Shown: positions 2,750-23,719 of the stretch, piece by piece | Numbering within the stretch: position 1 is the stretch's first letter | How the letters are laid out: each line of letters opens with the position of its first letter | Assembly: GCF_003790525.1 (NCBI RefSeq) | Contig: NZ_CP033635.1 | Reading direction: 5' to 3' (one strand) | Length of the DNA: 64,000 nt | Source: Escherichia coli | Lineage (GTDB): Bacteria > Pseudomonadota > Gammaproteobacteria > Enterobacterales > Enterobacteriaceae | Notes under the pieces: generated by a model | Database searches by the model: none | Seen by the model: the letters and a program-made list of their open reading frames with translations, nothing else | What the model was told of the DNA's origin: nothing | Made by a program: the position numbers and the translations under genes

Positions 2750-3364
2750 ATGACCCATTTTTCACAGCAAGATAATTTTTCTGTTGCGGCGCGCGTGTTG
2801 GGCGCGCTGTTTTATTACGCTCCAGAGAGTGCGGAAGCCGCCCCCCTGGTTGCGGCACTCACCCGTGACGGCTGGGAAACTCAGTGGCCTCTACCAGAAG
2901 AGTCATTAGCGCCGCTGGTGACTGCTTTTCAGACACAGAGTGAAGAGACTCACGCCCAGGCTTGGCAGCGTTTGTTTGTCGGCCCGTGGGCACTGCCGTC
3001 ACCGCCGTGGGGATCGGTCTGGCTGGATCGCGAATCTGTGCTGTTTGGCGATTCAACATTGGCACTTCGTCAGTGGATGCGCGAGAAAGGCATTCAGTTT
3101 GAAATGCAGCAAAACGAACCGGAAGATCATTTTGGTTCACTGCTGTTGATGGCTGCGTGGTTGGCGGAGAATGGTCGCCAGACAGAATGCGAAGAATTGC
3201 TGGCATGGCACCTTTTTCCGTGGTCAACACGTTTTCTTGACGTTTTTATCGAAAAAGCAGAACACCCTTTCTACTGTGCACTGGGTGAACTGGCTCGCTT
3301 AACGCTGGCGCAATGGCAATCACAACTGTTGATTCCTGTCGCGGTTAAACCACTCTTTCGATAG
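2750..3364 (+). CDS. dmsD: Tat proofreading chaperone DmsD
   Basis: 204-aa ORF from MTHFSQQDNFSV..., matching recalled DmsD N-terminus; operon position. Confidence 0.9.
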   Translation: MTHFSQQDNFSVAARVLGALFYYAPESAEAAPLVAALTRDGWETQWPLPEESLAPLVTAFQTQSEETHAQAWQRLFVGPWALPSPPWGSVWLDRESVLFGDSTLALRQWMREKGIQFEMQQNEPEDHFGSLLLMAAWLAENGRQTECEELLAWHLFPWSTRFLDVFIEKAEHPFYCALGELARLTLAQWQSQLLIPVAVKPLFR

Positions 3365-3558
3365 GATCACCGTAATATTGCCGGATGGTGACGATTACGC
3401 GCGATTCGGCAATAATACGTTACAGTGTCACGTTTTTTTATCTCTTAAAGCACGCACTGCTTTTGCGGCTGGCCTCTTTTGCCGCAAAATAGTCGCCCGT
3501 GTTTCATTGCCCATTTCTGCTCATGCATCATCTACACATCTATCCGGATCTGAGCACT

Positions 3559-4815
3559 ATGTTCCGCCGTCTGCTTATCGCAACAGTCGTCGGTATTCTT
3601 GCGGCCTTTGCCGTTGCCGGGTTTCGTCATGCAATGCTGCTACTGGAGTGGTTGTTCCTCAATAATGACTCCGGCAGTCTGGTCAATGCAGCGACAAATC
3701 TTTCCCCATGGCGACGGTTGCTAACTCCGGCGCTCGGCGGACTGGCGGCGGGTTTGTTGCTGATGGGCTGGCAGAAATTTACCCAGCAACGCCCTCATGC
3801 GCCGACCGATTACATGGAAGCGTTGCAAACCGATGGTCAGTTCGATTACGCAGCAAGCCTGGTTAAATCGCTTGCCTCTCTGCTGGTAGTAACCAGCGGC
3901 AGTGCAATTGGTCGCGAAGGTGCGATGATTCTTTTAGCTGCCCTTGCCGCCTCCTGTTTTGCCCAACGTTTTACGCCACGCCAGGAGTGGAAATTATGGA
4001 TCGCCTGTGGAGCTGCGGCGGGAATGGCTGCGGCCTATCGAGCCCCGCTTGCTGGCAGTTTATTTATAGCCGAAGTGCTGTTTGGCACTATGATGTTGGC
4101 CTCTCTCGGCCCGGTGATTATTTCCGCCGTCGTGGCGTTGCTGGTTAGCAATCTGATTAATCATAGCGACGCGTTACTCTACAGCGTACAACTCTCAGTG
4201 ACGGTTCAGGCTCGTGACTATGCGCTGATTATCAGTACAGGTGTGCTGGCAGGTCTGTGCGGACCACTGTTGTTAACGTTAATGAACGCCTGTCATCGTG
4301 GATTTGTAAGTCTCAAACTTGCGCCGCCCTGGCAACTGGCACTGGGCGGGTTGATCGTGGGTCTGCTTTCCCTGTTCACACCTGCAGTGTGGGGCAACGG
4401 CTATAGCACCGTACAATCCTTTTTAACCGCCCCGCCACTGTTAATGATCATTGCCGGGATCTTCCTCTGTAAACTGTTTGCCGTGCTGGCGAGTAGTGGT
4501 TCTGGCGCGCCCGGTGGTGTCTTTACACCGACGCTATTTATCGGTCTTGCCATTGGCATGTTGTATGGTCGTAGCCTGGGATTATGGTTCCCTGATGGCG
4601 AAGAAATTACGCTTTTACTCGGATTGACCGGGATGGCGACACTATTGGCGGCAACCACGCACGCGCCGATTATGTCGACGTTGATGATATGTGAAATGAC
4701 CGGGGAGTATCAGCTACTCCCCGGTTTATTGATTGCCTGCGTAATTGCGTCGGTAATTTCGCGGACGTTACACCGTGACTCTATCTACCGCCAGCACACT
4801 GCGAAGCATAGCTAA
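3559..4815 (+). CDS. clcB: ClC-type voltage-gated chloride channel/H+-Cl- antiporter
   Basis: 418-aa polytopic membrane protein from [15 protein letters not shown]...; start chosen at the internal ATG consistent with K-12 ClcB. Confidence 0.85.
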
Positions 4816-12294: not shown

Positions 12295-12365
12295 ATATAA
12301 CTTATTTCGCTTAACTAATTGATTTAATTAAATAATTTGCACTACAAAAAGTGCCAAAAATCGCA

Positions 12366-12391
12366 AATTAACTACACCATTAACTACACCG
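12366..12391. repeat. 26-bp element-end repeat 'aattaactacaccattaactacaccg' (tandem 'ttaactacacc'), candidate integrase arm-type site, left end
   Basis: Exact 26-bp copy at 23567-23592 next to the int start; both copies in direct orientation just inside the element ends. Confidence 0.6.
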
Positions 12392-13466
12392 TTCGGCGCA
12401 CTGTATGAAACAACGTGGAACAAATAGACACAAGCGGCAGGCTATACCGTTATCATTTTTCAGCTATCCGTCATGAAGCTGGTGGATGATCACGGATAAC
12501 CAGGCATCTACAGCGCCTTAAAAAGCTGAACCCGACAAACATTTCTGCTTATCGGGTCCGATCGCTCTTTCTACTCGTGGCAGATGAGTTTACTAGGAAG
12601 GGGGGAACATTGTATCAGGCTATCCCCTTTCTGTGCTGATTCGGCTGGTGAATGATCTACTTGGGGCACTACACTTTTCGGATAGTGCGGGTATCCGGTT
12701 TTCTGCCTCATCGAATTTTAAGCCTTCTGACGGCCTGTATATCATTTCCTGTGGAGTTGCCGCCCTGATAGCGAATACTGCGGCAGCATGTGATTTACCC
12801 CCCGTTCTGTTGATGTTTGATGTGGCTGGTTGATGTGCTGCCATGTTTTCCGCCAATGGTGGAAAAGCCCACCAGCGCAACGCAGGACGCATAAAACCAT
12901 TGCGATGACTCTGGACGCAAAACCACGTTTAACGATGTTTTGCACTGAACCAGAATACTGTTCGTTTTTGTCTCGATGTCCGTACGTATTACGTCCGCAC
13001 CTAATCCGGCATCATGCCCACCAGCGTAACGCATTTTTTTAATTTCGTGGCTGTGCGTCCACCAGCTACGCCGGAATGGGGTATTCCGTTTCAACGGAAC
13101 AGGTATGACGAACATAATCGCACCTTCTCCCGAAAACGGTGCGACCTGCATCATCGAAATGGTGATTCAGCTACTCGGCGATTTTCACCATTCAGAATCT
13201 GGCGGGTGAGTTATCCAGCTTCCACCAATGGGGGATTCTGGAACAATCAACGGGTTACGCCTTATCAGCAAAAAAGCACATCAACTGTAAAGGAAATCGT
13301 TATGGTTGCTGGTGGGCTGCGTCACCATCATGGTGATGATGCTGTCCAGTCAGCCGGAACGGTTGAACAGGGTGGCTATGGGTCACTCTGTTGTGCGTTA
13401 TTTGCGTGATCCTGGTACGGGGTGACTATCTTTCAGATAGTCGGTTGCCTGGTTACACGAAAAAAT

Positions 13467-13775
13467 TTACTTCCTGCGTTTATCCTGCTTTGTATGCCCG
13501 TGCTGAATGCCCCGCAGTGGATCTTCTTTTTTCAGGTCGATCCCCATGTCCGTTAGTGTTTTTGTGGCGGCGGTTCTTATGGCACAAATCAGGTCTCTTT
13601 CCGGTTCCCGGGTTATGGTTGCCTTCCGGATGCATGCCGTTCGTCGTTCCGTTACATACTGACGCGCTTCATCACTTGCCGCCTGTTTCAGTAACTCACC
13701 CCAGCGATTAGCCGCCCGTCGCCATAAACCTTTCGCTTCCAGTTCTTCCGCTTTGTCATCATGCACCATAAGCAT
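13467..13775 (-). CDS. PerC-family-like putative transcriptional activator (copy 2)
   Basis: N-terminal MVHDDKAEELEAKGLWRRAANRWGEL resembles PerC/Pch activators (recalled) and is a paralog of the 17352-17624 ORF; start chosen at an internal Met. Confidence 0.45.
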   Translation of the reverse strand: MLMVHDDKAEELEAKGLWRRAANRWGELLKQAASDEARQYVTERRTACIRKATITREPERDLICAIRTAATKTLTDMGIDLKKEDPLRGIQHGHTKQDKRRK

Positions 13776-13883
13776 AATCCCATTGATACCTGTTAACTCT
13801 GAATGGTTGGTTTCTGTTCTTTTGATAATTTCCCGCATAGCTTATTGTATGACAGTACTGTCCCACAATAAGGAGTTGCACGC

Positions 13884-14174
13884 ATGAGAATGACTAGGCA
13901 CAAAAAACAGATTCTTGAACTCTACAAACCTGAGTATCGCGATTGGGTGCGGGTGGAGGCCGGAGATCCGCCTTTTGATGTTCGTGGTGTGACAGTGCTG
14001 CTCTATGGTTCCGAATATCGGCGATATCACATAGAGGCAACACGAAGGACGCTAAACGCTATGGTTCGTGATAAGTTGCTGGAGCGTGTGAAAGTCCGTG
14101 AGCCACGTTTTGATGTGCGTATTGGTGGCGATGGTGCGCATTGCACGGTAATCCGCTATGGCCTGGTAAGGTAA
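13884..14174 (+). CDS. hypothetical protein (96 aa), only plus-strand gene in the left half of the element
   Basis: ORF with ATG start; internal duplicated motif PPFDVRGV / PRFDVRIGG; followed by the palindrome 'cagaatgtaaatttacattctg'. No family recognised. Confidence 0.4.
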   Translation: MRMTRHKKQILELYKPEYRDWVRVEAGDPPFDVRGVTVLLYGSEYRRYHIEATRRTLNAMVRDKLLERVKVREPRFDVRIGGDGAHCTVIRYGLVR

Positions 14175-14276
14175 GCCATCGGGTAAATCAGATGATTAAA
14201 TCACCAGAATGTAAATTTACATTCTGCCAGCCACCAGCTACCCTCCTCAAAATTGAGGACCCTTTTTATCAACTGG

Positions 14277-14558
14277 TTACCGCCGCAACCGTTCCGGCTT
14301 CTTCCACTGATAAGTGTTTTTCGCGCTCTCCTGATACATCGCCACGCGTCGACGGTATGCCAGCAACTCTAGTACTCTGATTCGTATGTCGCGCATATCC
14401 ACGCCGTTAAGCTCAATACCATCACGGCGCATTACATCAGCAACAACACGCACATAATTTTCGGCGGTCACGCTGTCCGGCTGCGTGGCCTGTTCGTCAT
14501 GCTGCTGGCTGATTCCGGTAACGCGGCGGATTAATCCCAGTAGTTCGACTTCTGTCAT
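14277..14558 (-). CDS. hypothetical protein (~94 aa) immediately downstream of the cos/terS region
   Basis: ORF-track frame 14277..14756; start moved to the internal Met (MTEVELLGL...) so that it does not overlap the cos-like sequence. Function unknown. Confidence 0.4.
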   Translation of the reverse strand: MTEVELLGLIRRVTGISQQHDEQATQPDSVTAENYVRVVADVMRRDGIELNGVDMRDIRIRVLELLAYRRRVAMYQESAKNTYQWKKPERLRR

Positions 14559-14591
14559 TGTGCCCCCATCGCTCTGATAGTCTGGTGTCGT

Positions 14592-14655
14592 CGGGTCCTT
14601 TCCGGCATGTGGACCCGTTACGGGGCGTCGACCTCGCGCGTTTTCACTATTTATG
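14592..14655 (+). other. lambda-like cos site, copy A (cosN plus flanking sequence)
   Basis: 'cgggtcctttccgg...gttacggggcgtcgacctcgcgcgttttcactatttatgaaaattttt' closely parallels the phage lambda cos junction as I recall it ('...acgggtcctttccggtgatccgacaggttacg|gggcggcgacctcgcgggttttcgctatttatgaaaattttccgg'); the 12-mer gggcgtcgacct at 14623-14634 differs from the lambda cohesive end at one base. Confidence 0.75.
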
Positions 14656-14671
14656 AAAATTTTTCGGGATC

Positions 14672-14770
14672 CATGTCCGGTTTCTCTGCAAGTTAACCAT
14701 ATGAAAAATATAAAAACATGCTTTCCATGAACCGGACATGCGCAAAAAACAGACACTAAAACCGGACATC
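14672..14770. promoter_or_regulatory. cosB-like array: three 'ccggacat' repeats (one inverted, two direct) with an AT-rich spacer, candidate binding sites for the element's Nu1-like protein
   Basis: 'catgtccgg' at 14672-14680, 'accggacatg' at 14731-14740, 'accggacatc' at 14761-14770; located on the cosB side of cos copy A, where lambda has R3-I1-R2-R1. Confidence 0.5.
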
Positions 14771-14837
14771 GAACCAGTTAACCGAAAGTGTGCACAAATC
14801 ACATTCATTGCTGCGAGTGATTAACAAGTTATCGGCT

Positions 14838-15272
14838 TTACTGTTCTGTATCGGCTGATTGCTCCATGCTGGCACGGCGAACGCTTACGGCATGACGCCA
14901 CCCAGCCAGAAAGCCAGCCATTTTATTTCGTGCCTTGCTCACATCTTCCGGTGAATAGCCGTAAATATGCAAACCTTCATCAAATCGATGTTCTGTTTCT
15001 TCACTGGAGTACTCGTCACGCTCAGATGAAAGCAGCCTCGCAAACATAATTTTTTCCAGCGCACTGGTTTCTACGTGATATCCGATGGTCTGAAGATGGC
15101 TTTTACCTGAATACCAAAGCAATGTATGCCCGATGTGATAACCGCCAGACTTTCCGCGATCCGCATTAAGATACGGCATCCCCTGTTTGGTCCATGCGCG
15201 AATAGTGGTTCTGTTAACCTTGAAATGTTCAGCTATTTCCTGCTGACTTACAAAACAAGCTTTATCAATCAT
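14838..15272 (-). CDS. terminase small subunit Nu1-like DNA-binding protein (possible packaging-specificity/redirecting factor)
   Basis: N-terminus QQEIAEHFKVNRTTIRAWTKQGMPYL parallels lambda Nu1 KKQLADIFGASIRTIQNWQEQGMPVL (winged HTH); C-terminal half unlike Nu1; flanked by cos-like sites. Confidence 0.65.
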   Translation of the reverse strand: MIDKACFVSQQEIAEHFKVNRTTIRAWTKQGMPYLNADRGKSGGYHIGHTLLWYSGKSHLQTIGYHVETSALEKIMFARLLSSERDEYSSEETEHRFDEGLHIYGYSPEDVSKARNKMAGFLAGWRHAVSVRRASMEQSADTEQ

Positions 15273-15339
15273 AATGTTACCTTAACTGCATGGTTAAATA
15301 TCAATCAAGTGGTGGTGGTGTCACCTTCACGGAAAAACG

Positions 15340-15403
15340 TCATAAATAGCGAAAACGTGCGAGGTCGACGCCCCGTAACGGGTCCACATGCCGGAAAGGA
15401 CCC
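15340..15403 (-). other. lambda-like cos site, copy B (inverted copy of A, cosN plus flank, without the 'ccggacat' array)
   Basis: Reverse complement matches copy A at 62 of 64 positions; lies ~70 bp upstream of the Nu1-like gene start on the same strand. Confidence 0.7.
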
Positions 15404-15404
15404 G

Positions 15405-15430
15405 CAAAAAAAGCCGGATTTCTCCGGCCT
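15405..15430 (-). terminator. rho-independent terminator after the head-gene cluster (minus strand)
   Basis: Minus-strand hairpin ggccggagaaatccggcc followed by a T-run; related hairpin motif at 17324-17345. Confidence 0.5.
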
Positions 15431-15502
15431 TGTCTCAGATGGTTTTCAGTATGCGATAGATGTCGCCGTCATCGCCCTGGTTTGTGCCATCGTTCCCCCT
15501 GC

Positions 15503-15838
15503 TTATCGGGCCAGCGGCTGAACGGATACGCCGGAACCCGCAAAGGCGGCGCATTTTTTCGCATCGGTGTCGACGCTCTCAGGCCAGTTAACGGCGGCAA
15601 TATTGAATATCCCCGTCTTGTAACACTGTGCTGATTTCTGCTTTGACGTGTCCACAGGGTACGAGGTCAGATAAACAGCCTTGCCAGATTCCTTACCATC
15701 CCACGCCTTAAACTCGCCATTGTCTGCCAGCATCAGCGGGGTAAATTCCTGAATAACGCCAGCATCAGCGGCAAAATGTACCAGCGTCGTGGATACCTGT
15801 TGGCTGCCTGAAAATAACTCAATGTATGGAGCGTCCAT
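15503..15838 (-). CDS. head decoration protein, lambda gpD-like
   Basis: 111 aa; motifs TPLMLADNGEFKAWDG, YKTGIF, NWPE and KKCAAFAG parallel lambda gpD (TPLMLDTSSRKLVAWDG, YKSGTF, LWPE, KKRTAFAG) as recalled. Confidence 0.7.
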   Translation of the reverse strand: MDAPYIELFSGSQQVSTTLVHFAADAGVIQEFTPLMLADNGEFKAWDGKESGKAVYLTSYPVDTSKQKSAQCYKTGIFNIAAVNWPESVDTDAKKCAAFAGSGVSVQPLAR

Positions 15839-15849
15839 AGAATCCCCCG

Positions 15850-16905
15850 TTAAGCAATTTTGACGGTAACAAATTTGCGAATATCTGCCGGTACAGGCTG
15901 CGGTGCGCTGTGCGTCTGCACGTACTCAATCGCCGGATCGCCGTCCTCAATCCAGTTTTTCGGGTAGTACATGTTTTGCGTTGCGCCCGTTCTTACCGCT
16001 TCCTGATCCATAATCGCACCATATGCCACCAGCCCTTTATTGTTGGTGTTACCCAGGACCAGCAAATCAGGCTCAAGGAAATATTTTTCGGTCCCGTCGC
16101 TGTCAGTGTATTTGCCGGAATAGACGATAAGGGCCAGATCACCAAGATAGCCTTTAAAGCTCACCACTTCGCCCAGGTTTTTACAGGCCAGCTCGGCGGC
16201 GGATTCTGATCCACGGGAAAGATCGTACAGTTCACGGAATTTTTTAAAGCTGCGTAATGTGCGCCATACCTCACCGCCCATAATCATGACGTTGGCGGGG
16301 CAACCTGCCTGATCAGCATAAAGCTCGATGTCATAGATTGGGTCGTGCATGTCTTTATCCTGCTGGGACCATTTTTTACCACTGGCCTGCTGTATGATGC
16401 AGTTTTCCGGTATTTTCCAGTCGATTTCATAGCGTTCTATGCCTTCGCCCTCAATGATGTTTTTTCCGGTCGTTACCGCATTCACCGCCAGCCATTCCAC
16501 GCGCGCCTTAATGGCGTTTATCTGGCGGCGCATGTTGCCAGTAATCAGGCGCATACGGCGGTAAGTTGGATCGTTAAGCTGTGCCGGATCTTCTCCATCC
16601 ATGCGCATGATGGTCTTTGTTGGATCGATTTCGTGCTTTGGCTTCATGTAGCCTGGTTTAATCGTGCTGGTTTCGTACCCTTTATCGCGCTGGACCTGAC
16701 TACCCACCATAGGAGAACAGAACGCTGACATCGTAACCTCTTCAATGTCCAGGGTGTCCAGCATGATGTTTTGGGTGTTGAAGGTCGCCACGTTCGGGAA
16801 AAACAGCGTGGTAAACAGCGGACTAAATTTATATTCCGAAATATCCCCGCGATTCAGGTACGCGAAAAGCTGGTTAGTTGTAAGTGCCTTTGCTTTGCCT
16901 GTCAT
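15850..16905 (-). CDS. major capsid protein, lambda gpE family
   Basis: 351 aa; YKFSPLFTTLFFP and PGYMKPKHEIDP parallel lambda gpE FKFDPLFLRLFF and PGYVKPKHEVNP; similar length to gpE. Confidence 0.75.
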   Translation of the reverse strand: MTGKAKALTTNQLFAYLNRGDISEYKFSPLFTTLFFPNVATFNTQNIMLDTLDIEEVTMSAFCSPMVGSQVQRDKGYETSTIKPGYMKPKHEIDPTKTIMRMDGEDPAQLNDPTYRRMRLITGNMRRQINAIKARVEWLAVNAVTTGKNIIEGEGIERYEIDWKIPENCIIQQASGKKWSQQDKDMHDPIYDIELYADQAGCPANVMIMGGEVWRTLRSFKKFRELYDLSRGSESAAELACKNLGEVVSFKGYLGDLALIVYSGKYTDSDGTEKYFLEPDLLVLGNTNNKGLVAYGAIMDQEAVRTGATQNMYYPKNWIEDGDPAIEYVQTHSAPQPVPADIRKFVTVKIA

Positions 16906-17111
16906 TATTCACCTCCGTGAACCTGATTGATACCCAGCGCCGCACGCAAATAGGTGCGCACCTGCCAGCCTGTTGACGGCTCAACCATCGCCAGCGGATC
17001 AAGTCCTGCCGCAATGCCTGCTTTTACATTCTGCTGGTGGCGTTCCTTGAGCGCCTCCACGATGTCGGGGCTTATGTAGACCGTCACCCCGCCTTTTTTC
17101 TCTTCTGCCAT
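16905..17111 (-). CDS. hypothetical protein (68 aa), first gene of the head cluster
   Basis: ORF with ATG start, stop overlaps the capsid gene start; no family recognised. Confidence 0.4.
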   Translation of the reverse strand: MAEEKKGGVTVYISPDIVEALKERHQQNVKAGIAAGLDPLAMVEPSTGWQVRTYLRAALGINQVHGGE

Positions 17112-17323
17112 AGTCAGAAATTCCTCTTTGACTTAAAAAATCATAACTGGATGTTCATCCAGTCCTGATTATAATCATGATTGCATTTTGCGCAACAATA
17201 TTGAGTTACGTTGCAAATTATGAAATGATTATCCCGATCATGTGTGTCAGTTCACCATAAAAAACCTCGTATACAAAAGCCCCATAAGCCCCCTGTGACC
17301 TTATCGGGCTTTTTTTAGGCGTA

Positions 17324-17345
17324 AAAAAGCCGGATTGCTCCGGCT
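17324..17345 (-). terminator. rho-independent terminator downstream of the PerC-like gene (minus strand)
   Basis: Minus-strand hairpin gccggagcaatccggc followed by TTTTTT. Confidence 0.5.
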
Positions 17346-17351
17346 GTGTGC

Positions 17352-17624
17352 TCACTTCTGCGGGTAGTTGCGCCATATTGCTTTGCCAATACCAGCTATC
17401 CCCATTTGTTTTTCAGTGCGATTAACTGACCTTTTCAGAGCGCCTAAATCATCCGGCGGCTCCGGTGGCCTCTGTGCCTTACGGATACATTCCGCGCGAC
17501 GCATTGCCACCTGTTCGCGCTCCTTGTCTGTCTCCACCAGCCTCATAACTTCACCCCATCGCGCCGCCGCCCTCCGGTAAAAGCCTTTTGCCTCGAGTTC
17601 CTCCGCTATGCGGTCATGTACCAT
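17352..17624 (-). CDS. PerC-family-like putative transcriptional activator (copy 1)
   Basis: MVHDRIAEELEAKGFYRRAAARWGEV...; paralog of the 13467-13775 ORF; start placed at the internal Met just after the ssb stop. Confidence 0.45.
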   Translation of the reverse strand: MVHDRIAEELEAKGFYRRAAARWGEVMRLVETDKEREQVAMRRAECIRKAQRPPEPPDDLGALKRSVNRTEKQMGIAGIGKAIWRNYPQK

Positions 17625-17634
17625 CGTCACCCCC

Positions 17635-18045
17635 TCAGAACGGAATATCATCACCGTAAGGGTCATCGCCTCCCGCTGGTGGCTGATTACCCTGTGTGCC
17701 TGTGGTTTTGCGTCTGTTCCCGCCAGGACGTGCCGCACGGGCACTGATTACGCTGTCTGCAATAACCTGCCAGCCCTGCCGCGTTTCCCCGTTCTGTCCG
17801 GTCCACTGGCTGACCTGCATCGTGCCGGATACGCTGGCAACGTCGCCTTTTTGATGTTTAGCCAGAAAGTCGGCCTGTTTGCCAAATGCGATGACCGATA
17901 ACCATAACGTCGCCTGTCCGTCCTGTGCCTGGCCGCATGGTAAAGATACCGCCATACGCGCCAGCGTCATCGGTGTACCCTTACTGGTCTGTTTTACCTG
18001 CGGGTCGTCCACCAGCCGCCCGTAAGCTGCTATCTGTGCTGTCAT
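17635..18045 (-). CDS. ssb: single-stranded DNA-binding protein (SSB)
   Basis: 136 aa with OB-fold-like core, Gly/Pro/Gln-rich linker and the acidic C-terminal tail ...DDIPF typical of SSB. Confidence 0.7.
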   Translation of the reverse strand: MTAQIAAYGRLVDDPQVKQTSKGTPMTLARMAVSLPCGQAQDGQATLWLSVIAFGKQADFLAKHQKGDVASVSGTMQVSQWTGQNGETRQGWQVIADSVISARAARPGGNRRKTTGTQGNQPPAGGDDPYGDDIPF

Positions 18046-18284
18046 GCTGTCTGCTCTCCGGTTTTAACGTTGATGGTTGTTACCTGTTCTGCTTCGGCAA
18101 TATCCCGCTCTGTCAGCGTGGCAAAGTTTGCCGCCGTCGTTGTCATGAATGCGCTTATCAGTTCGGGATGTGCTTTCGCGTATCCTTCCCCTGTGTTGCG
18201 GTCGATGATTTTTATCGCCACCCTCAGCCAGTGCTCTGTAAGGTCAATGGCGCGGTGATCTGTCTTTTTGTGGCTTACCTTCAT
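18042..18284 (-). CDS. hypothetical protein (80 aa)
   Basis: ORF in the replication module, overlaps ssb start by 4 nt (coupled); no family recognised. Confidence 0.45.
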   Translation of the reverse strand: MKVSHKKTDHRAIDLTEHWLRVAIKIIDRNTGEGYAKAHPELISAFMTTTAANFATLTERDIAEAEQVTTINVKTGEQTA

Positions 18285-18287
18285 GAT

Positions 18288-18656
18288 TTACTCCAGAGTA
18301 CCGCTATTGCTGCTGTCGTTAACCGGATACCAGGCAAATACCATCGATTCACCACAGTGAACAAACTTCTTATCCGGCAGATAAAGGCACTCGCACATTC
18401 CCTCATCAGGACTATGCGGACTCATGCCCAGCTCACTGGTCAGCACGGGTAAGATTTCGCGGCAGGTGTTCCCCGCACCGAAATAATCAACCTCACAAAG
18501 CGCCCATGCAGCAATCGGGCTGTACCATTCCGTGCCGTCGTCGTCTTTGAACTTAGCCCACCAGCCAGGAAGGGCAGTTGATATGCTCAGTGTTTCAATT
18601 TCAGTGTTCATAAATTTACCTTCGGTATTTTGTCCTGCTGTTCGATTTTTATTCAT
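18288..18656 (-). CDS. hypothetical protein (122 aa or shorter)
   Basis: ORF directly downstream of the iteron region; Cys-containing; no family recognised. Confidence 0.45.
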   Translation of the reverse strand: MNKNRTAGQNTEGKFMNTEIETLSISTALPGWWAKFKDDDGTEWYSPIAAWALCEVDYFGAGNTCREILPVLTSELGMSPHSPDEGMCECLYLPDKKFVHCGESMVFAWYPVNDSSNSGTLE

Positions 18657-18860
18657 TGCTCACCATCTCTCACTTTTACTACTCACTTTTTAAAGCGTCT
18701 CGCTTCGTCTCACTTGAGATTTTTGTGTTTTGTATGTGCATGTTTCATAAGTGTTTTTTCACTGCTCACTTTTGAGCATGTATACAGGTGAGAAAGTGAG
18801 TAATTGTGTTAATATTTTGTAAAAACCTCACCATTACTCACTTTTACTACTCACTTTTTA
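18657..18860. repeat. iteron array, candidate replication origin ('ctcactttt' repeated ~7 times, one inverted, around an AT-rich core)
   Basis: Copies at 18669, 18682, 18709 (variant), 18765, 18793 (inverted), 18837 and 18850; 'ctcacttttactactcacttttta' occurs twice; lies immediately 3' of the rep ATPase gene. Confidence 0.6.
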
Positions 18861-20264
18861 CAGTGGTCCTACATCATCACCATCAATGTAAATCACGGCG
18901 TCTTTTTCCAGTTTGGCTAACCATCGCCGCATATTTTTCACGTCATACCCAAGCCGTTTCATGTCATCACGTAACAGCGGGATCGTGCACTTGTCGCCGT
19001 TCTGTGTGCGTGAACGGATGCACCCCCATAGCGCGGTATGGTTTTCCGTCTTGTTGCCTGCCTCCTCGATGCGCTCCAGTTCAGCAGGGGCGCGGGGAAC
19101 GTCAATCACCACCATGGACACAATTTCTTCGCCATCTGTATCGGTGAACACCTCCACGCTTTTAAGGTCGTATGCACTCTCTTTTGGCTCCTCTGCGTCC
19201 TTCATCTTCGTACACGCCGCAACCAGTGCTGTAACGTCTGAATTTTCCCTGCTGATTCGGTACTCTGCATCAAGCGCGGCACGGAATGCACTGGAACCAC
19301 GCGCCCCCTTTGTTTCATCCTTGCCGGAATGGTGAACCACCAGCACCGTGGCCCCTGTGGCCTGCTTTATCGCGTCACACCCCTGGATAAATGCGCCCAT
19401 ATCACGGGAATCATTTTCATCATTCCCACCAAAGCAACGGGCCAGCGTGTCGATCACAATCAGCCGCACATTTTCGCCCGTTCTGCTCTTAACAAGTCCG
19501 GCAGTCCTGATAACCTGCTCCACATAGTCAGGCGATGCAGGGAAAACAGGCGCGTTAATGATGCACAAATCTGTAACCACCTTGTCGTGGGTTATCTCCC
19601 ACGCCTTAACGCGGCGTTTTACGCCCATGCTGCCTTCACCAGCGATATAGATAACCGCACCCTTACTTACCCTGCGGCCTCCCCATGCCATACCTGTGGC
19701 AACATGGCACGACCAGGAAATGGCGAGGAACGATTTATAAGAACCGCTGGCCCCGTAGGTGCTGCATAATGACTCAGCCGGAATAAGCCCCTTAATGACG
19801 TAGCTTTGCTGCGCATCGAATCCCTCAGAACCCCATGAGATGGGAAGTGTGATTTTTCGCTTTCCGCCATTCATGACCAGGCTTTCCCCTCTCTCCCATG
19901 TTTCCCGTAGTCGTGGTAGCTGGTCGCTCCAGTCCTCCAGCAGTTCGAAATTTTCAGAAAGTAGCCGCGCCTCCTGGACTCCGGCGATCGCCAGTTTTGT
20001 GGCAATGGTCAGCATCTGCATATCGTCCAGGTTTCCGGCGCGTATGACCTTTACCCTGTATCGTCCTTCATCAACAATCTGTAAGTTGTCCAGTTCGCTT
20101 AACTGATAACGGCCCAGATAAACCGGAGGGATGGGATCGCCTGCTTTTTTGGCCTGTGCAATCATGTAATGTTCTGCAAAGGAGTGAGCATTATCACCCG
20201 CAAAAATAACCGCCTCAGTGTGTTTATCTTTCGGTAACAGTTTTACGTTCGGTGCAAGTTTCAT
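18858..20264 (-). CDS. replication protein with RecA-like P-loop ATPase domain (RepA/DnaB-like, satellite pri-rep type)
   Basis: 468 aa; Walker A YGASGSYKS, Walker B-like RLIVIDTL, HHSGK motif; C-terminal region possibly DNA-binding; iterons directly downstream. Confidence 0.65.
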   Translation of the reverse strand: MKLAPNVKLLPKDKHTEAVIFAGDNAHSFAEHYMIAQAKKAGDPIPPVYLGRYQLSELDNLQIVDEGRYRVKVIRAGNLDDMQMLTIATKLAIAGVQEARLLSENFELLEDWSDQLPRLRETWERGESLVMNGGKRKITLPISWGSEGFDAQQSYVIKGLIPAESLCSTYGASGSYKSFLAISWSCHVATGMAWGGRRVSKGAVIYIAGEGSMGVKRRVKAWEITHDKVVTDLCIINAPVFPASPDYVEQVIRTAGLVKSRTGENVRLIVIDTLARCFGGNDENDSRDMGAFIQGCDAIKQATGATVLVVHHSGKDETKGARGSSAFRAALDAEYRISRENSDVTALVAACTKMKDAEEPKESAYDLKSVEVFTDTDGEEIVSMVVIDVPRAPAELERIEEAGNKTENHTALWGCIRSRTQNGDKCTIPLLRDDMKRLGYDVKNMRRWLAKLEKDAVIYIDGDDVGPL

Positions 20265-20548
20265 TTCTTACCCCCTGCGACCAGCATTTCACGGATTTTG
20301 CGGATATAACTTGCAGCACGTTTCTGATTAACGGCTTTACGATGGCCCACCAGCGTGAAATCACGCCGGAACTGATAAACAGGCATAACGCAGTCATATT
20401 CGTAGCCTTCACGGCGGTAAGTGATGCGACGTTCCTCCACGCCCTTAATCATTACCGTGCCGCCGTAGTTATCACGGAAAATATCGCCGGGACGGATTTC
20501 AGGACGAGCGGGGCCGCTGGCATTAACGCCAGAATTTTTATTTTTCAT
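20261..20548 (-). CDS. hypothetical protein (95 aa), translationally coupled upstream of rep
   Basis: ORF overlapping the rep start by 4 nt; basic; no family recognised. Confidence 0.45.
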   Translation of the reverse strand: MKNKNSGVNASGPARPEIRPGDIFRDNYGGTVMIKGVEERRITYRREGYEYDCVMPVYQFRRDFTLVGHRKAVNQKRAASYIRKIREMLVAGGKK

Positions 20549-20553
20549 GTTTT

Positions 20554-20781
20554 TTATTCTCCGGTGTGCTGTTCTTTATATCTGTCGTGAATTGCCATCA
20601 CTGTATTTAATTCATTAATAACAGCCGTTAATAGCGTACGCACGGCAGAAAACATCATTGAATCAGATTCATCGCCACTTTCCTGCACATCAATTAAATT
20701 AAGTAGTAATGCGTCCATTTCCTTTGCGCGGATTAATGCCTTTTCACAATGAAAAATAACACCAAAGGGTATTTTATTCAT
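20554..20781 (-). CDS. hypothetical protein (~75 aa; ORF-track frame extends to 20823)
   Basis: First gene of the minus-strand replication operon; start uncertain (MNKIPFGV... versus the upstream Met). Confidence 0.4.
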   Translation of the reverse strand: MNKIPFGVIFHCEKALIRAKEMDALLLNLIDVQESGDESDSMMFSAVRTLLTAVINELNTVMAIHDRYKEQHTGE

Positions 20782-21060
20782 GACTCCCCTCCTGACGGAT
20801 ACGGGCGGCGAATACAGCGACACAACCGGACGGGCAACGGTTACGCGCTTCGCGTTCCGTCCAGGCGGTCACGTGGATAATTTGAGATTCTCCGGCACTC
20901 AGTGCCAGAAAACGCCACACAAAGGCGGTTTGTGTGTGCGCTAGTCGTGGGGTATGCTGTGTTCCAGCCATAATCGTTACTCCTGTTAACGGTTTGGTTA
21001 GACGCCCTGCATGTGTTACAGCACTGCGGGGCGTTGTCTTTTTAACGGCTTTCGTGATAG

Positions 21061-21104
21061 GGTGTACACCTATCAAGCAAAAACATAACGCTATAGGTGT
21101 ACAC
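21061..21104. promoter_or_regulatory. perfect 12-bp inverted repeat (gtgtacacctat ... ataggtgtacac), candidate operator abutting a small regulator gene
   Basis: Read directly from sequence; the 3' half ends 1 nt before the ATG at 21105. Confidence 0.5.
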
Positions 21105-21299
21105 ATGTCAACAGTTATTAAGCGAGATAAAAAACCAAAGGGAACAGGAAAAGCCCCCCCATTCCATATGCGAATAGCTCCAGAACTGAAAGAGCAGTTT
21201 GATAATGAGGCCAGCAATGATGGGGTAAGCCTAGCCAACTGGCTTAAAGAGTTGGGGCGCGCCGAACTAAAGCGACGCGGCATTGAACCTAAAGGCTGA
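21105..21299 (+). CDS. small basic protein (64 aa), possible ribbon-helix-helix/YlcI-YnfO-like prophage regulator
   Basis: MSTVIKRDKKPKGTGKAPPFHMRIAPELKEQFDNEASNDGVSLANWLKELGRAELKRRGIEPKG; family assignment from memory only; divergent from the replication operon. Confidence 0.4.
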   Translation: MSTVIKRDKKPKGTGKAPPFHMRIAPELKEQFDNEASNDGVSLANWLKELGRAELKRRGIEPKG

Positions 21300-21302
21300 T
21301 GT

Positions 21303-21426
21303 ATGACTGAAAAGCAGACCGATAACAAACTTTCTCTACCAGAGAATAAACCAGCAGGCTTCTTACCAAGAAAAATCCTTGATGAGATCAAACGCCGCCA
21401 GCGCCGCAAGGCCAAAGAGCAGGAAT
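21303..21426 (+). CDS. possible small protein (41 aa, Lys/Arg-rich C-terminus)
   Basis: ATG 4 nt after the preceding stop; MTEKQTDNKLSLPENKPAGFLPRKILDEIKRRQRRKAKEQE; followed by a strong hairpin terminator. Too short for the ORF track. Confidence 0.25.
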
Positions 21427-21460
21427 AGCCCACCAGCAAGCCAGCACACTGATCACATTG

Positions 21461-21490
21461 GCCACCGTGACAGGTGGCCTTTTCTTTGCC
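21461..21490 (+). terminator. rho-independent terminator (ggccaccgtgacaggtggcc + T-rich tract)
   Basis: Perfect 7-bp stem with 6-nt loop followed by ttttctttg, just after the 41-codon ORF. Confidence 0.55.
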
Positions 21491-21752
21491 CGTTATCCGG
21501 CAATTGTGGCGCTTCGCCACACGGTTGATATAATTCCCCTGCTCAGATTCATTTTTTGCGCGGCAGGTAAATTGTTCAGAAAGGCGGCTCCTTATCGGGG
21601 CCGCTTTTTTTATGTCTGAAAAACCGCGATTTTGTTGTTTTTCAGTTTCACCAGGCCGAACGAAGCCCCGCCCATGTTCGGGCGTATATCCAGTCTTCAT
21701 GGTTAAATCTCTGTATTAGTGGATGGGTGGCGGCTGTGTGCCGCCAGTCTTT

Positions 21753-21941
21753 TTAGTGAACTGCCTCGCAGCTTTCCTTCCATGCCAGAACTTCGGATAA
21801 AGACCAGCCAACGGAACGACCGCCCAGCTTACGCCGTGATGGGAATTGTCCGGCCTTTTCCAGGCGGTAGCGGCATGAGCGGCTAAGGCCTGTTAGCTTT
21901 TCGCATTCTTTTTCACGTATAAAGCGATCAGTGCTTAACAC
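21753..21941 (-). CDS. alpA: AlpA-family (Phage_AlpA) transcriptional regulator
   Basis: 62 aa; ...EKLTGLSRSCRYRLEKAGQFPSRRKLGGRSVGWSLSEVLAW... matches the AlpA HTH signature; adjacent to int. Confidence 0.75.
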   Translation of the reverse strand: MLSTDRFIREKECEKLTGLSRSCRYRLEKAGQFPSRRKLGGRSVGWSLSEVLAWKESCEAVH

Positions 21942-22315
21942 TATTGCCCCCTTTCGTTTCTTAAAGAGTTATTTCGTGTTCTATTGCGTTGGGATGTGTC
22001 TGATTGTGTCAGGGTGATTCAGAGTTGGCAAATGTTGGTGGCGGGTATTTTACAGAAACGGGGTGATTTTAATAAAAATCATTTTAATTCAGTATTATGC
22101 AAAGGCATAAAATCTCGTTTTATGCCTTTTTTCTCACTATTTAAAGCGTTATTCGCTAATGTATAAAAAACCAGTTGAGCATTAAAAATCAGCAACTTAT
22201 AAATCTGTATACTTTTTGACCTCTTGTTCGTGGTTGTTTCACGTTGTTGTGTATTGTTGCACGTTGTATCTGTGCACTTATCCAGTATGCGCATACTGAA
22301 AAAACACGAAAAAAA

Positions 22316-23563
22316 TTATTTTCTTCTGGCTACTGGTAGCGTGGTTACGTTTTCATGTGCTCCCGCCAGTATCTCCAACCGCTCCACCCACATATCCAGC
22401 GCATTGCGTTTCGCATCCAGATAACGGGAATGATTATAAACTCGCTGCATTCCTGGCATCTGGTGGCCTGTAAGCTGCTCCACGACGTGAGGATCCACGC
22501 CTAAATCGTTCAGCATCGTTGTAAAGGTGCGCCGGATGTCATGCAGTGACCATTGAGGGTGTTTTAGCCTCCTGTGCGCTAATCTGCCGTACTGCGATAC
22601 GCTGGCCTCCTGTTTCACTTCCCCCAGTAATAAGCCCGTGTGCCTGTTCTGCTCCACCAGCCGCGTGACGAACGGCAGGATCGCTTCCGGTATGGGCCGG
22701 AATATTGCGACCTTCGTTTTGCTGTGCTCCTTCGGAACGGTCCAGAGCATTTCCGTGAAATCCCACTCCCCGATCTCCGATAACCTCAGTTCTACCGTCC
22801 TGGCTCCGAAGACAATCAGGAGGCGGATTAGTGCGACGTAGTAAGGGGAAAATATTTTTTTGTCCAGTGCCTGCAATAATTCGCCCAGTTCTTTGGTGCT
22901 TAAGACACGTTCGCTTATATCCGGTTTTTTCCCAACGTCCGCCACGTTCAGATCGTCCAGAACGTTGCTGATTGCATAGCGCCGCCTCCGGCAAAACTTA
23001 AGCGCCTGTTTGCACGCCTGTAGCACGAATCCGGCAGTAACAGGCGTTCGCTTTGCCACCCGATCAAAACAGGCCAGCCAGTGCCGTAGCTCGCATTTAT
23101 CCAGCGGCATAGCACCAATGTGCTGTATTACGTGATTATTAAGTCGCCTTTTCAGGGCGATATAATCCACGCGGTTTTCCTTTACGTAAGACTCAAGCCA
23201 GTAGGTGAGCGCATCTCCAACCGTTACAGGCTTTAACGCTTCCTGCATGGTGTAATTCATCTCATGACGTGGATTTTTCCCCTCAGCCAGCCATGCGCGA
23301 CACTGGGCGGCTTTTTCCCTGGCTGATTTCAGGCTCAGATCAGGATAATTTCCCAGCTTAATACGTTCCGGTCGTGTCTCTCTTCCCGTTCCGGCCCTGT
23401 AAGTGAAATACCAGGTTAAAAGGCCGCTGGTTGAATGCCTGACGCTCAGATTTCCACCGTCATTAAGAAAGGCTGTTTTTTGGGCGGGTGTGCCGTTGAT
23501 TTTCCTTAGCTGTGTATCGCTCAGCTTGTTAAGTGCTCTGGTCATAATTTTGAATCCGGTCAT
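22316..23563 (-). CDS. int: tyrosine site-specific integrase (P4-type)
   Basis: ~415 aa; N-terminal arm-binding-like region, C-terminal catalytic motifs (HDIRRTF, GHQ..VYNHSRY); located at the element's right end next to the arm-type repeat. Exact start uncertain (GTG/ATG/ATG cluster). Confidence 0.85.
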   Translation of the reverse strand: MTGFKIMTRALNKLSDTQLRKINGTPAQKTAFLNDGGNLSVRHSTSGLLTWYFTYRAGTGRETRPERIKLGNYPDLSLKSAREKAAQCRAWLAEGKNPRHEMNYTMQEALKPVTVGDALTYWLESYVKENRVDYIALKRRLNNHVIQHIGAMPLDKCELRHWLACFDRVAKRTPVTAGFVLQACKQALKFCRRRRYAISNVLDDLNVADVGKKPDISERVLSTKELGELLQALDKKIFSPYYVALIRLLIVFGARTVELRLSEIGEWDFTEMLWTVPKEHSKTKVAIFRPIPEAILPFVTRLVEQNRHTGLLLGEVKQEASVSQYGRLAHRRLKHPQWSLHDIRRTFTTMLNDLGVDPHVVEQLTGHQMPGMQRVYNHSRYLDAKRNALDMWVERLEILAGAHENVTTLPVARRK

Positions 23564-23566
23564 CAC

Positions 23567-23592
23567 AATTAACTACACCATTAACTACACCG
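23567..23592. repeat. 26-bp element-end repeat (same as 12366-12391), right end, immediately upstream of int
   Basis: Exact 26/26 identity with the left copy. Confidence 0.6.
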
Positions 23593-23719
23593 ATCGTTGC
23601 ACAAAGGGCTACAACGTGAAACAAGCTGGAACAAGAAAAATCACAAATTTGTTTATAATCAAAAACATAATGCACAACCTGAAACATTATGAAACGGCAA
23701 AAAACACTAATTGATAAAG

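Follow-up and report, generated by a model that had tools for sequence, protein, structure and literature searches.

The presence of two cos sites around the rppA gene of the EcCICFT073 island of Escherichia coli has been published (Fillol-Salom 2018, ISME J, PMC6092414; Fillol-Salom 2019, Mol Cell, PMC6739421). RppA (redirecting phage packaging protein A) binds the small terminase TerS of the helper phage; the resulting complex recognises cos1 through its cosB, but neither the cosB of cos2 nor that of the phage (PMC6739421). With this heterocomplex the island is packaged in place of the phage, as demonstrated for the module of strain CFT073, which is 98% identical to the one analysed here (PMC6739421). 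In Fig S1A of the latter study, cos1 runs into the first rppA codons while cos2 includes an array of CCGGACAT motifs. Both cos1 and cos2 let a plasmid be transferred by lambda and phi80. Deletion of cos1 lowers island transfer, this site being essential and RppA-dependent, whereas deletion of cos2 raises lambda-mediated transfer and slightly raises phi80-mediated transfer, so that cos2 is dispensable with both helpers (PMC6092414, PMC6739421). The purpose of having two cos sites was left open by the authors of these studies (PMC6092414, PMC6739421), and our search of the accessible literature for later work on cos2, on two cos sites, on inversion or on PhiR12 phages returned nothing relevant.

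Here we have analysed a 64,000-nt stretch of E. coli DNA (hereafter, the window) in which an inverted repeat had been noticed and read as two cos-like sites, copies A and B, flanking a Nu1-like gene. Judged by their sequence, copies A and B are the published cos2 and cos1 of the EcCICFT073 family of phage-inducible chromosomal islands (PICIs), and the feature is therefore already known. What we add is incremental, namely a probable phage identity for cos2, repeat arms that appear to be composites joined at cosN, natural flips of the enclosed cassette and an apparent restriction of cos2 to E. coli islands.

The island and its paired cos sites

A locus of E. coli strain PKF11 shares 99.9% identity with this region of the window. 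Its genes, all lying on one strand, encode an integrase, AlpA, an Icd-like protein, a DUF4222 protein, a RepA-family helicase, SSB, PerC, a major capsid protein and a head decoration protein. This gene set identifies the element as a Gram-negative PICI. Its context is that of an EcCICFT073-type PICI, with int, alpA, a replication gene, unidirectional genes, a size of ~11.4 kb and an attachment site of its own. The features to which we refer below are the following (the island and the genes for integrase and helicase follow the annotation of the PKF11 locus).

12316..23716, ends approximate, minus strand: whole PICI, ~11.4 kb, inserted in tqsA
14277..14558, minus strand: conserved PICI gene of 93 aa (phrog_1561, function unknown), backbone flank on the cos2 side
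14592..14669, plus strand: cos2 core (copy A), left repeat arm, with cosQ at 14593-14599, cosN at 14623-14634 and an I2-like stretch up to 14669; reads left to right
14670..14800, plus strand: cos2 cosB, a predicted phage-type R-site array, placed by motif positions and identity to PhiR12 phages
14838..15272, minus strand: rppA, 144 aa, the gene previously called Nu1-like
15192..15326, minus strand: cos1 cosB, PICI-specific and recognised by RppA-TerS, delimited with the help of the phi80 chimera primers and of Fig S1A (PMC6739421)
15327..15404, minus strand: cos1 core (copy B), right repeat arm, with cosQ at 15397-15403, cosN at 15362-15373 and an I2-like stretch up to 15327
15503-15838, minus strand: PICI head decoration gene, backbone flank on the cos1 side
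15850-16905, minus strand: lambda-E-type major capsid gene, backbone flank on the cos1 side
18858-20264, minus strand: RepA-family helicase gene
22316-23566, minus strand: island integrase gene

At the island ends, the split tqsA and a short repeat, ACTAATTGAT (~10 nt), were read by eye. Just inside both ends there is also an exact 26-nt direct repeat, AATTAACTACACCATTAACTACACCG (12366-12391 and 23567-23592), which may correspond to integrase arm sites. The island encodes two PerC-family regulator paralogues on the minus strand (13467-13838 and 17352-17744). One of them lies in an accessory region, bounded by the 93-aa gene and the tqsA junction, that may be the remnant of a second element.

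Repeat search and base-by-base comparison defined the inverted pair as two arms of 78 nt (14592-14669 and 15327-15404) that are identical at 71 of 78 positions (91%) and lie 657 nt apart. The first 64 nt of the arms contain exactly two mismatches, as in the original prediction of a 64-nt repeat; its coordinates for copy B were off by one base, and the real repeat extends to 78 nt. In the 64-kb window the 12-mer GGGCGTCGACCT, one base different from lambda cosN (GGGCGGCGACCT), is present exactly two times, on the plus strand (14623-14634) and on the minus strand (15362-15373), against a chance expectation of 0.15. Each arm also carries the lambda cosQ heptamer GGGTCCT (14593-14599 and, as reverse complement, 15397-15403) together with a TTTATGA stretch resembling I2, and the cosN-like 12-mers that had been noticed in both copies are indeed part of real lambda-type cos cores. 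The two cores face each other, copy B reading right to left towards rppA. This convergent layout had been described as not standard for lambdoid phages, and rightly so. The element is a PICI satellite and not a phage. The positions of the motifs likewise agree with a 'ccggacat' array beside copy A alone. Copy B does lie upstream of the Nu1-like gene on the same strand, at 54 nt when counted from the 78-nt arm to the ATG at 15272. As a separate observation, the base change in GGGCGTCGACCT (G6T) creates a SalI site, and this variant is also present in phage contigs with different TerS types (L019, L022 and L024). Next to copy B, a hairpin followed by a T-run (GCCGGAGAAATCCGGCTTTTTTT, 15405-15435, minus strand), located 3′ of the decoration gene, ends exactly at the cosQ of cos1; it was seen by eye and is kept in all loci compared, and a terminator scan gave no call there.

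The enclosed gene is rppA and not a terminase small subunit gene. It shows 98.4% nucleotide identity to the rppA of CFT073 (1387659-1388093), its 144-aa product matches the RppC structure 6hlk (E = 4e-32), and the N-terminal sequence is that of the RppA printed in Fig S1 of PMC6739421. The TerS family phrog_57 matches only residues 7-54, and the terminase C-terminal part is missing. The match to RppC, the identity to CFT073 rppA and a TerS likeness limited to the N-terminal ~50 residues together make this gene an Rpp. The cosB of cos1 spans the 54-nt leader and the first ~27 codons of rppA and is near-identical to that of CFT073; copy B followed by 15192-15326 aligns both with published cos1 and with CFT073, and copy A matches the published cos2 sequence of EcCICFT073 (Fig S1A, PMC6739421). 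A promoter scan upstream of rppA gave matches at about chance level only, consisting of two weak hexamer pairs on the minus strand (15324-15297 and 15297-15268). The gene probably keeps its own promoter inside the cassette.

Positions 14540-15440 of the window are colinear with CFT073 (96% identity), where the corresponding inverted repeat measures 77 nt with 82% identity. Both islands share the same rppA, the two cos sites in convergent layout and the flanking PICI genes. They differ in their location (tqsA in the window, next to phoQ in CFT073), in the replication gene (a RepA-family helicase instead of a primase), in the likeness of the arms (91% versus 82%) and in cosN, which carries G6T in both arms of the window. 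In addition, the window island has no 137-aa gene between cos1 and the decoration gene. This gene (phrog_1999), found in CFT073 (locus L004, 9598-10011) and in most related islands, is absent between 15404 and 15503; its product weakly resembles the C-terminal part of a head maturation protease and may be scaffold-like.

cos2 compared with phage cos sites and with other islands

The cos of lambda is ordered as cosQ-cosN-I2-R3-I1-R2-R1 and is followed by Nu1. In cos2, elements of lambda type are predicted in the same order, with the cosQ heptamer, 11 of the 12 cosN bases, an I2-like stretch and three R-like sites, one of them inverted. These R-like sites are ATGTCCGG at 14673-14680 (inverted) and CCGGACAT at 14732-14739 and 14762-14769, the first two being separated by an A/T-rich spacer. 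The differences are that the R motif is CCGGACAT instead of the CGTTTCC type of lambda, that no terS follows cos2 on the same strand, where the 3′ end of rppA abuts the array, and that a second cos faces cos2 740 nt away. Copy A together with the array aligns with published cos2, and the array is invariant between the window and CFT073.

A close match to cos2 was found in the lambdoid phages PhiR12_1 to PhiR12_5, whose cos, located just upstream of their Nu1, is 94.4% identical to 14591-14769. From cosN inward, the 142 nt comprising I2 and cosB share 96% identity with PhiR12 and 85% with the cos of the potB prophage of CFT073. The homology to PhiR12 ends directly after the last R site, and the cosQ-cosN spacer falls outside it. 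The potB prophage is of PhiR12 type and lies ~10 kb from the CFT073 island; its TerS (WP_000235436.1) is 100% identical in amino acids to that of PhiR12_1. In all these phages (PV340549-PV340554 and the potB prophage) the three R motifs and their spacing are the same as in cos2. The phages differ from the island in their cosQ-cosN spacer and in what comes after the array, which is Nu1 and TerL in the phage and rppA on the other strand in the island. A PhiR12-type array with Nu1 was detected, at ≥80% query coverage, in 1140 of 5426 complete E. coli genomes (~21%). Taken together, these data indicate that cos2, with its cosQ, cosN, I2 and three-site R array, is probably a full phage-type cos of a different lambdoid terminase family, the one represented by PhiR12 and the CFT073 potB prophage. 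The published comparison of cos1 and cos2 covered lambda, phi80 and the helper phi4 (PMC6092414, PMC6739421), which is probably why this match was missed; the cos and TerS of phi4 are phage-21-like and differ from cos2.

We also considered the possibility that the DNA-binding domain of RppA is related to PhiR12 TerS, which would make the CCGGACAT array an Rpp site. This candidate was rejected: BLASTP gave 9/31 identities (E = 0.046), a weak helix-turn-helix resemblance between otherwise unrelated proteins, and the supplement of PMC6739421 places the array in cos2 and not in the Rpp-recognised cos1. As a side observation, a 4.6-kb metagenomic viral contig (L026, IMGVR_UViG_3300008491_000088) contains at 2772-4614 a PICI decoration gene, a cos core, a CCGGACAT array, Nu1 and TerL in succession. 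Its decoration protein has 96% amino acid identity to that of the window and its Nu1 100% to that of PhiR12. Either the contig was assembled chimerically across the cos shared by both elements, or PICI and phage are truly joined at the cohesive ends.

Other islands carry different cassettes between the same kind of flanks, and the 93-aa gene flanks the cassette in every E. coli locus compared. The island next to phoQ in O157:H7 shares these flanks and the inverted cos cores (76 nt, 91%), which enclose a full-length TerS of 180 aa and a lambda-style R3-I1-R2-R1 array with a GATCC-type motif. No close phage match to this cassette was found in the phage collection searched. In two O157-lineage genomes (NZ_AP026082.1, 1543041-1546401, H246; NZ_CP038398.1, 3075088-3078447, H247) the island terS is split by an IS3-family element (IS1203-like). 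In the island on viral contig L020, which has an RppB-like gene, the inner portion of cos2 shares 88% identity with the cos of phage L024 (GGTTGTTGT motif). Both rpp and terS are missing from islands L007 and L008; of their two inner regions, one shows 97% identity to the L024-type cos and the other 96% to the PhiR12-type cos, that is, two phage-type cos sites facing each other. Candidate likenesses between the O157-type array and phage L019, and between the L011 array and phi4, remained at background level in the alignment and were discarded, and we claim only a shared motif type. Overall, the site at the cos2 position resembles a phage cosB in every E. coli island compared, and in the collections searched two of the four array types have close phage matches, the O157 and L011 types being the two that do not.

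In distant Rpp islands (Klebsiella, Phytobacter and Salmonella) we searched for another inverted cos and found none; these islands carry a single cos1-like core upstream of rpp on the same strand. The second cos is therefore an optional, non-essential addition, and cos2 appears to be confined to E. coli islands. The original prediction would be refuted by relatives that carry one copy with equal fitness, and this holds in part, as the more distant Rpp islands carry a single cos. Two loci from this survey show rpp homologues in another setting, followed by the packaging and tail genes FI, Z, U and tail tube in Salmonella enterica subsp. salamae (L017, 3001-6441) and by a tape measure gene in Phytobacter palmae (L015, 3001-5786), which suggests satellites embedded in prophage late regions, a situation already described (bioRxiv 10.1101/2022.07.18.500453).

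Probable exchange and inversion of the cassette at cosN

We aligned both arms of ten loci. On the side of the 93-aa gene, the spacer between cosQ and cosN was CCTTCCTGGAATTATGGCCCG in 9 of the 10 loci, and on the side of the decoration gene it was CCTTTCCGGCAT(A/G)TGGACCCG in 7 of the 10, in both cases whatever the orientation of the cassette. In contrast, the I2 variant and cosB always moved with the cassette contents in these ten loci. Since the outer spacer stays with the flank and the inner I2 and cosB stay with the cassette, the exchange joint is the invariant GTTACGGGGCG(G/T)CGACCTCGC, that is, cosN. The cosN variant was equal in both arms of every island, seven loci having G/G and the remaining three (the window, L008 and L020) T/T. 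These results led us to infer that the arms are composites, with a half made of cosQ and spacer that belongs to the backbone, a half made of I2 and cosB that belongs to an exchangeable cassette, and cosN as the joint.

To find inverted cassettes of the rppA type in nature, a synthetic query was made in which 14670-15326 was reverse-complemented; 15 genomes covered this query fully on one strand. The rppA-type cassette was thus inverted in 15 genomes and was direct in 67, and the TerS-type cassette was direct in 493 and inverted in 5, the inverted TerS form being confirmed in two islands at different attachment sites. The clearest pair consists of L006 (strain WP4-S17-ESBL-08), where rppA lies on the strand opposite to the flanking genes, and L009 (strain HM670), where identical protein accessions occur at the same chromosomal site and all genes are co-directional. 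Between both strains, an 813-nt segment including the two arms is 100% identical but reversed, and the flanking proteins and RppA are identical. A stretch of 47 nt is identical between the arms of this near-isogenic pair, which prevents a finer placement of the crossover. A PhiR12-type array on the side of the decoration gene, which corresponds to the flipped state, was also present in L007, L008 and L021. The flipped states of the rppA type, of the TerS type and of these three loci imply at least three independent flip events. Over 1919 nt there is 100% identity among the 15 inverted genomes, all in one orientation, and the flip therefore appears to be stably inherited rather than a fast switch. 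The cassette thus seems to have been flipped and swapped at cosN several times in nature.

Three candidate routes could produce a flip. RecA could recombine the arms over about 25-47 identical bases; cuts made by terminase at cos could stimulate recombination; or terminase could cut at both cosN sites and the released fragment re-anneal in reverse, which would be feasible because both fragment ends would carry the same 12-nt overhang. The sequences fit homologous recombination and terminase cut-and-rejoin alike. We regard as unlikely, though worth stating, the version in which the helper terminase itself acts as a recombinase, releasing the ~740-bp cassette to be re-annealed either way or replaced by the left end of a co-resident phage. 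If true, cosN would be a recombinase-free joint for flipping and swapping packaging-specificity cassettes, and terminase flipping would explain both the composite arms of backbone and cassette joined exactly at cosN and the cosN variant shared by the two arms of each island.

Possible roles of the second cos site

Our preferred reading, which we hold to be somewhat better than evenly probable, is that the EcCICFT073-family PICI module keeps two packaging specificities in convergent orientation and is not a programmed switch. cos1 with RppA would redirect the helper terminase to the island, and cos2 would probably let PhiR12-type helpers package the island directly, without Rpp; direct packaging through cos2 would therefore widen the helper range. 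By analogy with lambda cos biology, the convergent orientation may be a stable way to hold two cos sites. In lambda, termination needs cosQ to be met in the right orientation. Because termination depends on this orientation, an inverted second cos would not cause a deletion from cos to cos. A flip of the cassette should leave packaging of the circular or concatemeric island unaffected. The proposed role of cos2 resembles that of cos-carrying SaPIs (SaPIbov5, and SaPIbov4 with two putative cos sites), satellites that carry the cos of their helper and are packaged by the unmodified helper terminase, although sequences and hosts are unrelated and Rpp is absent from them (as cited in PMC6092414). 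Alternative packaging initiation, one of the explanations first offered for the pair, has the support of published experiments (PMC6092414, PMC6739421).

Several observations go against a dual specificity. In a clearly less probable alternative, cos2 would play no adaptive part in transfer and would be either a tolerated leftover of a captured phage cos-terS region or a decoy that titrates helper terminase to interfere with the phage; the inversion would then persist only because it does little harm. With lambda and phi80, the helpers assayed, cos2 is useless or harmful, and the higher transfer seen upon its deletion (slight with phi80) speaks for such a leftover or decoy, as does the lack of a second cos in distant Rpp islands, which manage with one. 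The potB prophage may be defective, the published native helper phi4 has a different cosB, and the O157-type and L011-type arrays lack a close phage match in the collections searched. A multicopy island with a perfect phage cos would moreover compete for terminase. It is harder to reconcile with a leftover or decoy that more than 500 E. coli genomes, across at least four array types, retain a second convergent cos whose three-site array is intact, that the arrays stay 88-97% identical to cos sites of live phages, and that L007 and L008 have lost rpp and terS yet keep two phage-type cos sites. Decoy and packaging roles of cos2 are mutually compatible.

The dual-specificity reading has also to be weighed against the idea of an invertible segment, which stands on an evolutionary scale, both orientations occurring in natural genomes, but is not supported as a programmed device. 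A switch that toggles rppA expression or packaging direction at high frequency, in the manner of Hin/Gin/Cin, shufflons or fimS, is very improbable, even though the segment is bounded by inverted repeats, occurs in both orientations for two cassette types as in those systems, and would leave a flipped rppA facing away from the capsid operon. Unlike in those systems, the repeats are terminase sites and not recombinase sites, and their role as cos cores already accounts for them. Between the repeats and on either side of them lie rppA, the 93-aa gene and the capsid genes, with no dedicated site-specific invertase near the cassette, and the sole recombinase is the island tyrosine integrase ~7 kb away. 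In the genomes compared, orientation is uniform within lineages, the 15 inverted genomes being all alike and the TerS type standing at 493 versus 5, and a flip yields the mirror image of the same structure, which should leave packaging of the circular or concatemeric island unchanged. As for a recent strain-specific duplication or an assembly artefact, its one argument is the high identity of the arms in the window (91%), and we consider that it can practically be dismissed: the architecture is the same in CFT073 (arms 82%), in O157:H7 (91%) and in hundreds of independent complete assemblies, and the arms differ in lineage-specific ways. The explanation of the pair as a duplication remnant is rejected too, given that the outer half of each arm stays with the backbone of the island, that the inner half moves with the cassette, and that both sites function in plasmid transfer assays.

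On the dual-specificity reading, cos2 matches a common prophage terminase family outside the published helpers, with one such prophage in CFT073 itself. Since cos2 would be the cos of this family, the purpose of the two cos sites becomes directly testable. The natural exchanges at cosN, flips as well as swaps, hint at a way in which satellites gain and reshuffle helper specificities, a process that bears on the spread of these islands, which can carry virulence genes, between E. coli lineages.
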